A stretch of DNA of 64,000 nt, taken from Escherichia coli (GTDB lineage Bacteria > Pseudomonadota > Gammaproteobacteria > Enterobacterales > Enterobacteriaceae). Location: assembly GCF_024298765.1 (NCBI RefSeq), contig NZ_CP101210.1. One strand, written 5' to 3'. The position numbers and the translations under genes are program-made. Positions within the stretch are counted from its first letter, which is position 1. Every line of letters begins with the position of its first letter. The notes below the pieces were generated by a model. It had not been told where the DNA came from, made no database searches, and was given only the letters and a program-made list of their open reading frames with translations. This document shows positions 490 to 28,504 of this stretch, one piece after another.

Positions 490-1755
490 TTACTGTTTTA
501 ATGGATTATTAATCTTTGCATATTCAAATGGACTGATAAATTTTTCTCTGTTTGCATCCAGAAAATCGGCCCACCATTGTAGCATCAAGCGGCGTTCTTC
601 CAGATGCTCTGCTTTATGGATATACGCGGCCCTCACTGAATTTCGCTCCATGTGGCTCATCTGACGTTCAACAGCATCACGAGACCACAAACCTGATTCG
701 ACCAATGAACTACAGGCCATTGTTCGAAAGCCATGACCACAAACCTCTACTTTTGTATCATACCCCATGACCCGTAACGCACTATTTACCGTATTCTCAC
801 TCATGGGTTTGTGCGAATCGTGATCACCAATAAATATCAAGTCATGGGCCCCACAAAACTGTTTTATCTGCTTTAAAATTGCAAGAGCTTGCGTTGAAAG
901 AGGCACTAGATGCGTTGTACGCATTTTTGAGCCTCTATGGGAATGTTTCACTCCAGGAATAGGCTCCCGCTCCGGTGGGATAGTCCATATAGACGCTTCG
1001 AAATCGATCTCTGACCAACGAGCAAAACGCAGCTCACTGGACCGAATAAAGATCAGCAAAGAGAGTTCTGTCGCCCATCGGGTTAGCGGCCTACCAGTAT
1101 AGCTATCTATTTTTGTAAGCAACTCAGGGATGCGCTTTAATTCAAGCGCGGGACGATGTTGTCGATTACAGGAAGCAACCGCCCCAGCCATCTCTTGTGC
1201 CGGGTTATAATCAATTAACCCACTTTGCACTGCATAGCGCATGATGGCTGTAGTGCGCTGCTGAAGACGAGCGGCCACTTCAAGACGTCCAGACATTTCT
1301 ACGGCCTTAATGGGTGCTAATAAATCTCGAGTTTTTAACTCAGCGATATTACGTTCACCAAGCGCTGCAAAAAGATTATCTTCCAGACTTTTTAGCACAC
1401 GATGGGCGTGATCTTCAGACCACTTTTTATTGGTGCCATGCCACTCAATCGCGACTTCTTTAAAGGTTCGTGCTTTACTCTGTTCAACCTTATCATTTTT
1501 CTTTTTGTCTCCCGGATCGACGCCATTCGCAAGCAGCTTACGCGCCTCGTCACGACGTACTCTGGCATCCGCTAGTGTGATTTCAGGATAAACCCCAAGT
1601 GCCAGCATTTTTTGCTTTCCCTCATAACGGTACTGCAAACGCCAGTACTTAGAACCATTTGGATGGACAAGCAGATGCATACCGCCACCATCAGTCAGCT
1701 TATATTGCTTATCCGTTGGCTTGGCTGCTCTGACTTTGATATCTGTTAATGCCAT
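490..1755 (-). CDS. P4-family tyrosine integrase (site-specific recombinase) adjacent to tRNA-Leu
   Basis: 421-aa ORF with ATG start; N-terminal MALTDIKVRAAKPT...WRLQYRYEGK and C-terminal integrase-like region are typical of P4-type integrases; lies directly downstream of the leuX 3' end on the same strand. Confidence 0.88.
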   Translation of the reverse strand: MALTDIKVRAAKPTDKQYKLTDGGGMHLLVHPNGSKYWRLQYRYEGKQKMLALGVYPEITLADARVRRDEARKLLANGVDPGDKKKNDKVEQSKARTFKEVAIEWHGTNKKWSEDHAHRVLKSLEDNLFAALGERNIAELKTRDLLAPIKAVEMSGRLEVAARLQQRTTAIMRYAVQSGLIDYNPAQEMAGAVASCNRQHRPALELKRIPELLTKIDSYTGRPLTRWATELSLLIFIRSSELRFARWSEIDFEASIWTIPPEREPIPGVKHSHRGSKMRTTHLVPLSTQALAILKQIKQFCGAHDLIFIGDHDSHKPMSENTVNSALRVMGYDTKVEVCGHGFRTMACSSLVESGLWSRDAVERQMSHMERNSVRAAYIHKAEHLEERRLMLQWWADFLDANREKFISPFEYAKINNPLKQ

Positions 1756-1902
1756 GCGTATTCCCTCCCTGTTGGTACAAGCATTATCGAACCGGAAATA
1801 CCATCATCTGTACCAACATATGTTGGTAGATGTACGTTGATATCGGTTGACCTTGAGAGAGTTAATATAGCGGGAAAGGTAGATAAACACTGGATTTCAG
1901 GC

Positions 1903-1928
1903 ATAAAAAAAGACCTCAGTTGAGGTCT
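1903..1928 (-). terminator. Rho-independent terminator downstream of leuX
   Basis: Hairpin agacctcaactgaggtct followed by a T-run on the minus strand, immediately 3' of the tRNA. Confidence 0.65.
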
Positions 1929-1941
1929 ATTTACATACTTT

Positions 1942-2026
1942 TGGTGCCGAAGGCCGGACTCGAACCGGCACGTATTTCTACGGTTGATTTTGAATCAACT
2001 GCGTCTACCGATTTCGCCACTTCGGC
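1942..2026 (-). tRNA. leuX: tRNA-Leu (anticodon CAA)
   Basis: Reverse complement reads GCCGAAGTGGCGAAATCGGTAGACGCAGTTGATTCAAAATCAACCGTAGAAATACGTGCCGGTTCGAGTCCGGCCTTCGGCACCA; cloverleaf with CAA anticodon and 3' CCA. Confidence 0.95.
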
Positions 2027-3370: not shown

Positions 3371-4873
3371 ATGAGCGAACCCCTGTTAATTGCCCGCACG
3401 CCGGACACAGAACTTTTTTTACTGCCGGGAATGGCTAACCGTCACGGGCTGATTACTGGCGCAACGGGGACGGGTAAAACCGTTACGCTGCAAAAACTGG
3501 CAGAGTCTCTATCTGAAATCGGCGTGCCGGTGTTTATGGCCGATGTGAAAGGTGATTTAACGGGAGTAGCGGAGGAAGGTACTTCTTCGGAAAAACTGCT
3601 CGCAAGGCTTAAAAATATCGGCGTAAATGACTGGCAACCTCATGCTAATCCGGTGGTGGTGTGGGATATCTTTGGCGAGAAAGGCCATCCGGTGCGGGCG
3701 ACGGTTTCGGATCTTGGGCCGCTGTTGCTGGCACGACTGTTGAATCTCAACGATGTGCAATCTGGCGTGCTGAATATCATTTTCCGCATTGCTGACGATC
3801 AGGGATTGTTGCTGCTCGACTTTAAAGATTTGCGGGCGATTACCCAGTACATCGGCGATAACGCCAAATCCTTCCAGAATCAGTACGGAAATATCAGTAG
3901 CGCATCGGTTGGTGCCATCCAGCGCGGATTACTGTCGCTGGAACAGCAAGGCGCAGCACACTTCTTTGGTGAGCCGATGCTGGATATCAAAGACTGGATG
4001 CGCACCGATGCCAACGGTAAAGGCGTTATCAATATCCTCAGCGCCGAGAAACTTTATCAGATGCCGAAACTGTACGCCGCCAGCCTGCTGTGGATGCTTT
4101 CAGAGTTATATGAACAATTGCCTGAAGCGGGCGATCTGGAGAAACCAAAACTGGTGTTTTTCTTCGACGAAGCACATCTGCTGTTTAACGATGCACCGCA
4201 GGTACTGCTGGATAAGATTGAGCAGGTGATAAGGCTTATCCGCTCGAAAGGCGTGGGCGTCTGGTTCGTTTCGCAAAACCCGTCAGATATTCCGGATAAC
4301 GTGCTCGGGCAGCTCGGTAATCGCGTTCAACACGCTTTGCGGGCTTTTACGCCCAAAGATCAGAAAGCAGTAAAAGCTGCGGCGCAAACCATGCGGGCCA
4401 ATCCGGCGTTTGATACCGAAAAGGCAATCCAGGAACTGGGGATCGGCGAGGCGTTAATCTCGTTTCTCGATGCGAAAGGAAGCCCTTCAGTGGTGGAACG
4501 GGCGATGGTGATTGCCCCCTGTTCACGAATGGGGCCGGTGACGGAAGATGAGCGTAATGGCTTGATTAATCACTCCCCGGTGTATGGCAAGTACGAGGAT
4601 GACGTGGATCGGGAATCCGCCTATGAGATGTTGCAAAAAGGCTTTCAGGCCAGTACCGAGCAGCAAAATAATCCTCCCGCGAAAGGGAAAGAGGTGGCGG
4701 TGGATGACGGTATTCTTGGTGGATTGAAGGATATTTTGTTTGGCACTACCGGACCACGCGGCGGGAAGAAAGATGGTGTGGTGCAAACAATGGCGAAAAG
4801 CGCCGCCCGCCAGGTGACGAATCAGATTGTGCGTGGGATGTTGGGGAGTTTGCTGGGGGGGAGAAAAAGGTAA
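3371..4873 (+). CDS. yjgR: HerA-like P-loop ATPase, DUF853 family
   Basis: [37 protein letters not shown]alker A motif; 500 aa from the internal Met of ORF 3323..4873. Confidence 0.88.
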
Positions 4874-9571: not shown

Positions 9572-12426
9572 TGGAAAAGACATACAACCCACAAGATATC
9601 GAACAGCCGCTTTACGAGCACTGGGAAAAGCAGGGCTACTTTAAGCCTAATGGCGATGAAAGCCAGGAAAGTTTCTGCATCATGATCCCGCCGCCGAATG
9701 TCACCGGCAGTTTGCATATGGGTCACGCCTTCCAGCAAACCATCATGGATACCATGATCCGCTATCAGCGCATGCAGGGCAAAAACACCCTGTGGCAGGT
9801 CGGTACTGACCACGCCGGGATCGCTACCCAGATGGTCGTTGAGCGCAAGATTGCCGCAGAAGAAGGTAAAACCCGTCACGACTACGGCCGCGAAGCTTTC
9901 ATTGACAAAATCTGGGAATGGAAAGCGGAATCCGGCGGCACCATTACCCGTCAGATGCGCCGTCTCGGCAACTCCGTCGACTGGGAGCGTGAACGCTTCA
10001 CCATGGACGAAGGCCTGTCCAATGCGGTGAAAGAAGTTTTCGTTCGTCTGTATAAAGAAGACCTGATTTACCGTGGCAAACGCCTGGTAAACTGGGACCC
10101 GAAACTGCGTACCGCTATCTCTGACCTGGAAGTGGAAAACCGCGAATCGAAAGGTTCGATGTGGCACATCCGCTATCCGCTGGCTGACGGCGCGAAAACC
10201 GCAGACGGTAAAGATTATCTGGTGGTTGCGACCACTCGCCCGGAAACCCTGCTGGGCGATACCGGCGTGGCCGTTAACCCGGAAGATCCGCGTTACAAAG
10301 ATCTGATTGGCAAATATGTCATTCTACCGCTGGTTAACCGTCGTATTCCGATCGTTGGCGACGAACACGCCGACATGGAAAAAGGCACCGGCTGCGTGAA
10401 GATCACCCCAGCGCACGACTTTAACGACTATGAAGTCGGTAAACGTCACGCCCTGCCGATGATCAACATCCTGACCTTTGACGGCGATATCCGTGAAAGC
10501 GCCCAGGTGTTCGATACCAAAGGTAACGAATCTGACGTTTATTCCAGCGAAATCCCGGCAGAGTTCCAGAAACTGGAGCGTTTTGCTGCACGTAAAGCCG
10601 TCGTTGCTGCGGTTGACGCGCTCGGCCTGCTGGAAGAAATTAAACCGCACGACCTGACCGTTCCTTATGGCGACCGTGGTGGCGTGGTTATCGAACCGAT
10701 GCTGACCGACCAGTGGTACGTACGTGCCGATGTACTGGCGAAACCGGCAGTTGAAGCGGTTGAGAATGGCGACATTCAGTTCGTACCGAAGCAGTACGAA
10801 AACATGTATTTCTCCTGGATGCGCGATATTCAGGACTGGTGTATCTCTCGTCAGCTATGGTGGGGTCACCGTATCCCGGCATGGTATGACGAAGCGGGTA
10901 ATGTTTATGTTGGCCGCAACGAAGACGAAGTGCGCAAGGAAAATAACCTCGGTGCCGACGTTGCCCTGCGTCAGGACGAAGACGTTCTCGACACCTGGTT
11001 CTCTTCTGCGCTGTGGACCTTCTCTACCCTTGGCTGGCCGGAAAATACCGACGCACTGCGCCAGTTCCACCCAACCAGCGTGATGGTATCTGGTTTCGAC
11101 ATCATCTTCTTCTGGATTGCCCGCATGATCATGATGACTATGCACTTCATCAAAGATGAAAATGGCAAACCGCAGGTGCCGTTCCACACTGTTTACATGA
11201 CCGGTCTGATTCGTGACGACGAAGGCCAGAAGATGTCCAAATCCAAGGGTAACGTTATCGACCCGCTGGATATGGTTGACGGTATTTCGCTGCCAGAACT
11301 GCTGGAAAAACGTACCGGCAATATGATGCAGCCGCAGCTGGCGGACAAAATCCGTAAGCGCACCGAGAAACAGTTCCCGAACGGCATTAAGCCGCACGGC
11401 ACCGATGCCCTGCGCTTCACCCTGGCGGCGCTGGCGTCTACCGGTCGTGACATCAACTGGGATATGAAGCGCCTGGAAGGTTACCGTAACTTCTGTAACA
11501 AGCTGTGGAACGCCAGCCGCTTTGTGCTGATGAACACAGAAGATCAGGATTGCGGCTTCAACGGCGGCGAAATGACGCTATCGCTGGCGGACCGCTGGAT
11601 TCTGGCGGAGTTCAACCAGACCATCAAAGCGTACCGCGAAGCGCTGGACAGCTTCCGCTTCGATATCGCCGCAGGCATTTTGTATGAGTTCACCTGGAAC
11701 CAGTTCTGTGACTGGTATCTGGAGCTGACCAAGCCGGTAATGAACGGTGGAACAGAAGCCGAACTGCGCGGTACTCGCCATACGCTGGTGACTGTACTGG
11801 AAGGTCTGCTGCGCCTCGCGCATCCGATCATTCCGTTCATCACCGAAACCATCTGGCAGCGTGTGAAAGTACTTTGCGGTATCACTGCCGACACCATCAT
11901 GCTGCAACCGTTCCCGCAGTACGATGCATCTCAGGTTGATGAAGCCGCACTGGCTGATACCGAGTGGCTGAAGCAGGCGATCATTGCGGTACGTAACATC
12001 CGTGCAGAAATGAACATCGCGCCGGGCAAACCGCTGGAGCTGTTGCTTCGTGGTTGCAGCGCGGATGCAGAGCGTCGCGTAAATGAAAACCGTGGCTTCC
12101 TGCAAACGCTGGCGCGTCTGGAAAGCATCACCGTGCTGCCTGCCGATGACAAAGGTCCGGTTTCCGTTACCAAGATCATCGACGGCGCAGAGCTGCTGAT
12201 CCCGATGGCTGGCCTCATCAACAAAGAAGATGAGCTGGCGCGCCTGGCGAAAGAAGTGGCGAAGATCGAAGGTGAAATCAGCCGCATCGAGAACAAGCTG
12301 GCAAATGAAGGCTTTGTCGCCCGCGCACCGGAAGCGGTTATCGCGAAAGAGCGTGAGAAGCTGGAAGGTTATGCAGAAGCGAAAGCCAAGCTGATTGAAC
12401 AGCAGGCTGTTATCGCCGCACTGTAA
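9571..12426 (+). CDS. valS: Valine--tRNA ligase
   Basis: 951 aa; HIGH motif ([12 protein letters not shown]) and KMSKS motif; C-terminal coiled-coil. Confidence 0.97.
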
Positions 12427-12448
12427 TCAACACAGTGATGAAAACGAA

Positions 12449-12474
12449 GGCCGGAGCATGCTCCGGCCTTTTTT
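12449..12474. terminator. Bidirectional terminator between convergent valS and yjgN
   Basis: Hairpin aggccggagcatgctccggcct flanked by T-runs. Confidence 0.6.
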
Positions 12475-28455: not shown

Positions 28456-28504
28456 TTTTCTTCGGGGCGCAATTGCGCCCCCTCGCATTTGCAGGAATAA
28501 CGTA

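Follow-up and report, generated by a model that had tools for sequence, protein, structure and literature searches.

The repeat cluster that separates leuX from the adjoining integrase gene (int) is very probably a set of four arm-type sites (R1–R4) for the N-terminal Arm domain of the integrase (Int), which together with the 3′ end of leuX would make up the int-proximal arm of an attachment (att) site. The configuration is that of attL, the counterpart of the lambda P′ arm. Homology with P4 suggests that Int monomers would bind R1–R4 through their N-terminal domains and engage the leuX core through their C-terminal domains, giving the recombination complex. The sites fill the stretch from the leuX terminator (1928–1904) to the int ribosome-binding site, and because they occupy this space, bound Int would be expected to block int transcription, as P4, IntI, and IntS also suggest. 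The initial annotation of this DNA had offered an operator, an integrase arm site, or a promoter element as explanations of the repeats. The arm-site reading is strongly supported by a P4-like layout, by lineage-specific motifs that track the Arm domain throughout the family, and by copies of the motif beyond the att core in related elements.

In the window, the whole 64-kb stretch of DNA analyzed here, leuX, a tRNA-Leu(CAA) gene, was located by ARAGORN at 1942–2026 on the minus strand (Rfam tRNA match, 59.4 bits). A 186-bp spacer separates it from int (490–1755, minus strand; ATG at 1755), an open reading frame for a P4-family tyrosine integrase of 421 aa. The island begins in this spacer and extends leftwards beyond the window; over ~45 kb it includes fimbrial, pgt, and fec genes as well as numerous IS fragments. 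Positions 1–2100 are 100% identical to NZ_CP010344.1, the sequence of the bovine mastitis isolate E. coli ECC-1470. Int is 59% identical to P4 Int, and its intact reading frame encodes, in this order, an N-terminal Arm DNA-binding domain (Pfam PF13356, Arm-DNA-bind_3, residues 3–87, E = 7.6e-29), a central domain (PF22022), and a catalytic domain (PF00589). The att core is formed by the 3′ 20 nt of leuX, GAGTCCGGCCTTCGGCACCA (1942–1961, minus strand), and has the same sequence as the attP core annotated in P4 (4078–4097); at junctions of tandem elements, similarity to the window stops at ~1965. On the int side, a Shine-Dalgarno sequence, GGGAGGG (1763–1769, minus strand), can be read 7 nt upstream of the ATG at 1755. 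The intrinsic terminator of leuX (1904–1928, minus strand) consists of a 7-bp stem (1928–1911) followed by seven T's. It is supplied by island DNA, and its stem shows compensatory changes across genera, from CCTC/GAGG to CGTC/GACG (GACCTC...GAGGTC versus GACGTC...GACGTC). A similar hairpin is found 3′ of the tRNA in nearly all related elements.

Read in the sense of int (minus strand), the cluster opens with R1 (1828–1821), followed after two bases by R2 and then by R3, a box CCGGTTCGAT (1795–1786), R4, the GGGAGGG sequence, and the ATG. R1 (1821–1828, plus strand; TGTTGGTA on that strand, TACCAACA in int sense) is the outer half of an 18-bp palindrome, the inner half of which is R2 (1811–1818, minus strand), the first direct copy, reading TGTTGGTA in int sense. 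The second direct copy, R3 (1799–1806, minus strand; TGATGGTA in int sense), follows 12 bp after R2 and matches the motif at 7/8 positions. R4 (1770–1777, plus strand; TGTTGGTA on that strand, TACCAACA in int sense) is inverted and abuts the Shine-Dalgarno sequence. The four copies, in both orientations, lie at 1770–1828 between core and int, 113 bp from the core. The initial annotation had described a mirrored pair, gttggtaca (1771–1779) and tgtaccaac (1809–1817), together with a perfect 14-bp palindrome, ccaacatatgttgg (1813–1826), near the integrase start. All of these coordinates are right, and the whole cluster indeed lies within 73 nt of the int ATG (1755, minus strand). Both lengths were understated: the outer inverted repeat is perfect over 10 bp (1770–1779/1809–1818) and the palindrome over 18 bp (TACCAACATATGTTGGTA, 1811–1828). 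The direct copy R3 had been overlooked.

Perfect palindromes of 14 bp are found in the window at chance level (5 versus 4.6 in dinucleotide shuffles); for a perfect 18-bp palindrome 0.30 are expected per window, which places the longer one above chance. Inverted repeats of 10 bp with loops of up to 40 nt number 27 versus 3.25 expected, most of them being terminators. What decides in favor of a real cluster is how the 8-mer is distributed. Of four TGTTGGTA copies in the 64-kb window (1.5 expected), three fall inside 59 bp, and in 50 kb of island DNA leftwards the 8-mer is found at these three cluster positions only. The other two perfect palindromes of at least 18 bp in the window, AAGGCCGGAGCATGCTCCGGCCTT at 12447–12470, which is followed by a T-run, and GGGGCGCAATTGCGCCCC at 28464–28481, resemble ordinary terminator hairpins.

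To place the cluster within its family, we analyzed the 110 nt upstream of int in 80 loci with Int relatives that are 57–93% identical, in P4, and in three loci found by DNA similarity. Each was scored for a pair of direct copies spaced by 12 bp and a single inverted copy, the maximum being 27. The mean layout score was 23.8/27, versus 15.8 ± 1.45 for shuffled sequences, and the pattern was present in 82/83 loci. An independent sample of viral contigs showed the layout in 51/53 loci and added more motif classes. The repeats are thus conserved in related int-upstream regions, a point that the initial annotation had put forward for checking, and their layout is common to about 130 related int loci. 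The 12-bp spacing between R2 and R3 is kept across loci, and the distance from R3 to R4 is 29–31 nt in 69/78 of them. The motif itself differs by lineage: TGTTGGTA/TGATGGTA (window clade, nine other genera), TGAGTATA, TGCGGGTA, TGAGGGTA, TGGGGGTCA, TGNTGGTAA, and TGGGGGCAT. Within each locus, all copies share one version. Most of the surveyed elements reside at leuX, and several motif classes are represented there; hence arm specificity varies, while core specificity does not.

When identity over the N-terminal residues 1–87 of Int was compared with identity over the rest of the protein, the Arm domain was found to track the arm motif. In loci L016-19 and L062, which have TGAGTATA arms, Int is 85–86% identical to the window Int outside the Arm domain and only 62–64% identical inside it. 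With TGNTGGTA-type arms, N-terminal identity is at least as high as that of the rest (for example, 80 versus 71% in L044 and 72 versus 58% in L075). The pattern suggests that the N-terminal domain and its sites have been exchanged as a unit among leuX-targeting elements. Constraint on the sites is also apparent within the window clade, where across genera 1/32 arm-core columns is variable, versus 44/157 columns elsewhere in the intergenic region (Fisher p = 0.0012). The sole variable base inside the 18-bp palindrome is the central, non-core position (T, C, or G).

The same repeats could instead act at the level of RNA, R2 or R3 base-pairing to R4 within the int 5′ UTR, and the resulting hairpin beside the Shine-Dalgarno sequence controlling translation, mRNA stability, or excisionase binding. 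Indeed, over 10 nt R2 is the perfect complement of R4, the complementarity is kept across lineages, as it would also be for a stem, and the fold of the 91-nt leader, although unremarkable, has an energy of −24.6 kcal/mol (z = −2.19). We nevertheless regard this explanation as highly unlikely. For a hairpin a single partner would suffice, but the two direct copies are conserved at an exact 12-bp spacing, and in complete relatives a phased pair of the motif also lies beyond the att core, about 5–13 kb from int, where no RNA hairpin can account for it. The motif tracks a protein domain, and some mismatches within a locus are of the A-A or C-A kind rather than G-U (TGATGGTA versus TGTTGGTA; TGCGGGTA versus TGTGGGTA). 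The minimum-energy fold of the leader lacks a stem between R2/R3 and R4, the Rfam match is to the tRNA only, and R1–R3 may be untranscribed.

The 18-bp palindrome calls for separate consideration, since operators bound by dimeric regulators, such as a helix-turn-helix repressor or an island protein of the AlpA/Vis type, typically show perfect dyad symmetry, and its half-sites stay conserved across genera around a variable central base (T/C/G). That it serves such a protein and not Int appears extremely improbable to us. Both half-sites are the 8-mer of R3, R4, and the distal arm copies, and this 8-mer tracks the arm-binding domain of Int. An inverted R1 starting exactly 10 nt upstream of R2 is present only in the window clade and a Salmonella-type clade (16 loci); R1 is missing from most clades that otherwise keep the layout, and at its position other clades have a conserved CATCAA element. 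Because R1 is a clade-specific extra inverted copy, the perfect dyad is best seen as two head-to-head arm sites and not as a separate kind of operator. R1 and R2 would create the palindrome simply by their arrangement, R1 being an additional site of this clade. Furthermore, sites for excisionases (recombination directionality factors, RDFs) are typically phased direct repeats one helical turn apart (PMC7498355), a description that the neighboring sequence fits better. Upstream of the arm sites there are three direct repeats spaced by 10 bp on the minus strand (1826–1850): TCAAC (1850–1846), TCAAC (1840–1836), and TCTAC (1830–1826), the third of which overlaps R1. Upstream of the arm repeats in several clades with differing arm motifs, TCAAC(C) units 10–11 bp apart are followed by CATCAA, and P4-like elements have phased GTCC units at that place. 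From these sequence patterns, the TCAAC repeats are candidate sites for an RDF or for a host factor.

For the arm sites proper, further evidence comes from the far ends of related elements. In S. houtenae, a TGATGGTATCAA TGATGGTATCAT pair lies 55 nt upstream of a second leuX core, ~12 kb from int. In the metagenome locus L167, whose Int is 84% identical to that of the window, window-type R1–R4 adjoin leuX and a distal pair, TGTTGGTATCGA TGTTGGTATATT, is found 13.5 kb further on, again 55 nt upstream of a second core. The K-12-like metagenome locus L178 has window-type R1–R4 at leuX and, 5 kb away, a phased TGTTGGTA pair at the same distance of 55 nt upstream of a second core. In L164, a distal pair, the core, 113 nt, R1–R4, and int follow one another in a single stretch. 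A pattern search of metagenome contigs yielded at least 120 distal arms; the same search of viral contigs gave no match, and the two viral contigs that do have proximal arms of the window type are tandem junctions located behind a P4-like satellite. Among 5,426 complete E. coli genomes, 2,297 contain the distal-arm region, which closes a typical island module of antirestriction, YeeU/CbtA, and related genes, and about 1,400 contain the same int region.

Two features of these ends were seen repeatedly. The leuX island integrase is often preceded by a tandem P4-like satellite prophage (L002, L088, L091, L092), the order at the junction being a P4-type distal arm (GGGGGCA repeats), the core, and the island's own proximal arm. 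Secondary cores, at far ends and tandem junctions, are almost always one G short compared with leuX (CCTTCGCACCA instead of CCTTCGGCACCA); examples are L002 2945–2970, L089 12611–12633, L091 11972–11991, and L092 ~10186–10202, and about 85/97 distinct distal-arm sequences from metagenomes share this feature.

In the strain studied here the far end is missing. Neither a second leuX core nor a distal phased pair was found within 50 kb of the ECC-1470 island or in the window, and similarity to the version of the element common in E. coli ends at about position 131, ~350 bp past the int stop codon. Probably, IS-mediated rearrangement has immobilized the island at its present location. With no distal arm or second core in the strain, the sites can no longer support excision, and their present role can be at most the regulation of int. 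We therefore considered that R1–R4 are relics, genuine former arm sites without present function in a strain whose island cannot excise and whose int may be unexpressed. Besides the missing distal core and arm and the early end of homology past int, the lack of a recognizable promoter speaks for this, as does E. coli K-12 MG1655 (L090 300–375), where R1–R4 are identical and stand upstream of intB, a pseudogene that a TAG at codon 20 inactivates and that has a 1-bp deletion just before its ATG. Since K-12 keeps identical repeats at a dead intB, conservation within E. coli is uninformative on function. Against present inactivity stand the intact int frame of 421 aa with all three domains, the stronger constraint on arm cores than on their surroundings across genera, and a weak RNA polymerase-RpoH SELEX peak in K-12 (PMC5493296) that falls near the palindrome on an assumed coordinate offset. 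On balance, loss of function is a possibility to be taken seriously, though a doubtful one. It concerns present activity only and is compatible with the identity of the repeats as arm sites.

The promoter element proposed in the initial annotation found no support in the window clade. A scan of positions 1600–2250 against the sigma-70 consensus revealed no promoter, and a position-weight scan of 20 clade representatives gave no consistent promoter in the window clade. The position-weight scan did recover TTGAAA-18-CATAAT in P4, its −10 element falling on the R2/R3 junction; good hexamers are present in several other clades too, either at this junction or in the 3′ flank of R3. The window position homologous to the P4 promoter reads ACGTAC-19-TACAGA. 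One candidate, TTAACT-17-TATCAA, was discarded as unconserved within the clade (TATCAA changes to CTTCAA). By genomic SELEX, a weak RNA polymerase-RpoH peak has been reported in the K-12 leuX-insC spacer (PMC5493296). The sequence at this peak is, by eye, a poor match to the sigma-32 consensus, and a sigma-32 promoter there was not retained. On an assumed offset from older coordinates, the peak would lie at about the position of the palindrome, which makes it only a hint. By-eye comparison of the window with WATCAANNNNTTR revealed no evident IHF site, and the TTCGAT box fits on neither strand; a weak IHF candidate is offered by the CATCAA element that other clades have, but in the window R1 takes its place. 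By analogy with P4, PAI I536, and KplE1, the repeats probably also act as an autorepression operator, in line with the operator reading of the initial annotation.

Between R3 and R4 lies a conserved box, CCGGTTCGAT (1786–1795, minus strand; core TTCGAT, 1786–1791), which resembles a tRNA T-loop. TTCGAT is present at this place in 73/78 loci, whatever the arm motif, and a 9-mer of the box, CCGGTTCGA, is identical to the T-arm of leuX (1960–1968). A similar box precedes the distal pair by 22 or 28 nt in 81/97 distinct distal-arm sequences, one distal variant matching leuX at 12/13 positions; the box is also seen at L089 12513–12519 and in the distal regions of L167 and L178. Four loci at tRNAs with a TTCAA T-loop are without the canonical box, and 22/22 examined loci with a TTCGA T-loop have it. 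L222-226, except L225, form another TTCAA-type group and carry GGTTCTAT; L225, at a TTCGA tRNA, has no box and is a counter-example. The presence of the box thus appears to follow the TTCGA T-loop of the target tRNA only loosely. That the box is a copy of the target tRNA T-arm is no more than a lead, as the flanking bases match only partly and L225 runs counter to the T-loop association. The box may represent an additional protein site, belong to the promoter or start region, or be a relic. A more specific, and unlikely, possibility is that it constitutes a third class of att-arm site in the P4 family, copying with its T-loop-like sequence the target tRNA just left of the crossover, and would lock Int onto its own arms via the core-binding or catalytic domains or another factor. 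If so, integrase expression and intasome assembly would both be subject to a new level of control, and the R1-R2 palindrome would be an added, tightening operator. The 110 nt upstream of int in L061 (Rahnella bruchi) contain a hybrid arm: its direct repeats are of the TGAGTATA type, its inverted repeat and Int N terminus are of the TGCGGGTA type, and the apparent junction falls at the conserved TTCGATAATG box, suggesting recombination within that box.

The device described here is already known and its mechanism is ordinary; the current understanding of such integrases is unchanged. What is gained is a defined candidate recognition motif, TGNTGGTA, and a four-site map for the leuX island integrase; the same sites lie upstream of K-12 intB. 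Integrases sharing the leuX target carry at least six arm specificities. With the domain and its sites exchanged as a unit, independent excision would become possible for tandem islands and P4-like satellites at leuX, which bears on the stability of pathogenicity and fitness islands.

Several characterized systems follow the same plan. In its account of lambda, PMC2951348 describes an Int that uses its N-terminal domain for repeated arm sites flanking the core on either side, while the C-terminal domains bind the core itself. This integrase logic is shared by the leuX island, but the arm-domain family, motif, site number, and spacing differ from those of the lambda sites (P1, P2, P′1–P′3), and the lambda int promoter is without such arm-site overlap. 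KplE1 is closer in arrangement: its integrase gene adjoins a tRNA-borne attL, with arm-type sites between core and int, and IntS, together with its RDF, represses intS through arm-type (P′) sites that overlap the intS promoter (Panis et al., 2010, PMC2951348). KplE1 differs in integrase lineage, in its TAAA-containing motif, in its tRNA (argW), and in that its promoter and transcription starts have been mapped experimentally. IntI of PAI I536 is another P4-like island integrase whose gene adjoins a tRNA. Chitto et al. (2020, PMC7286903) demonstrated that it strongly represses its own promoter and that IHF of the host binds upstream. The tRNA of that island is selC, and the paper does not define the Int-binding sites at the sequence level.

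The closest counterpart is P4, which shares the integrase family, attB, the 20-bp leuX core, and the succession of two direct units 12 bp apart, TTCGAT, and an inverted unit. Its GenBank record (NC_001609) annotates "attP arm sequence repeat" features, an annotation based on sequence repeats. In int sense, these comprise direct 12-bp units TTGGGGGCATAA and TTGGGGGCATCT, followed by TAACTTCGATTAGAAA and by an inverted copy, TGTGCCCCCAA, at the int start; two further direct units lie beyond the 20-bp core GAGTCCGGCCTTCGGCACCA. By position, R2 corresponds to the P4 repeat at 3954–3965, R3 to that at 3942–3953, and R4 to that at 3915–3926, which overlaps the P4 int start. The distance from core to arm repeats is likewise similar, 112 bp in P4 versus 113–123 bp here. 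The attP arm repeats and the Pint region of P4 have reportedly been described before (Pierson and Kahn, 1987; Piazzolla et al., 2006). The two elements differ in their motif (TGGGGGCAT in P4 versus TGNTGGTA here) and in R1 with the resulting 18-bp palindrome, which P4 does not have. Whereas P4 has a good predicted promoter (TTGAAA-18-CATAAT) and both arms, the window has no such promoter and its island has lost the distal arm. As described for P4 in PMC2951348, both Int and Vis repress Pint, Int doing so by binding DNA directly near the int transcription start.
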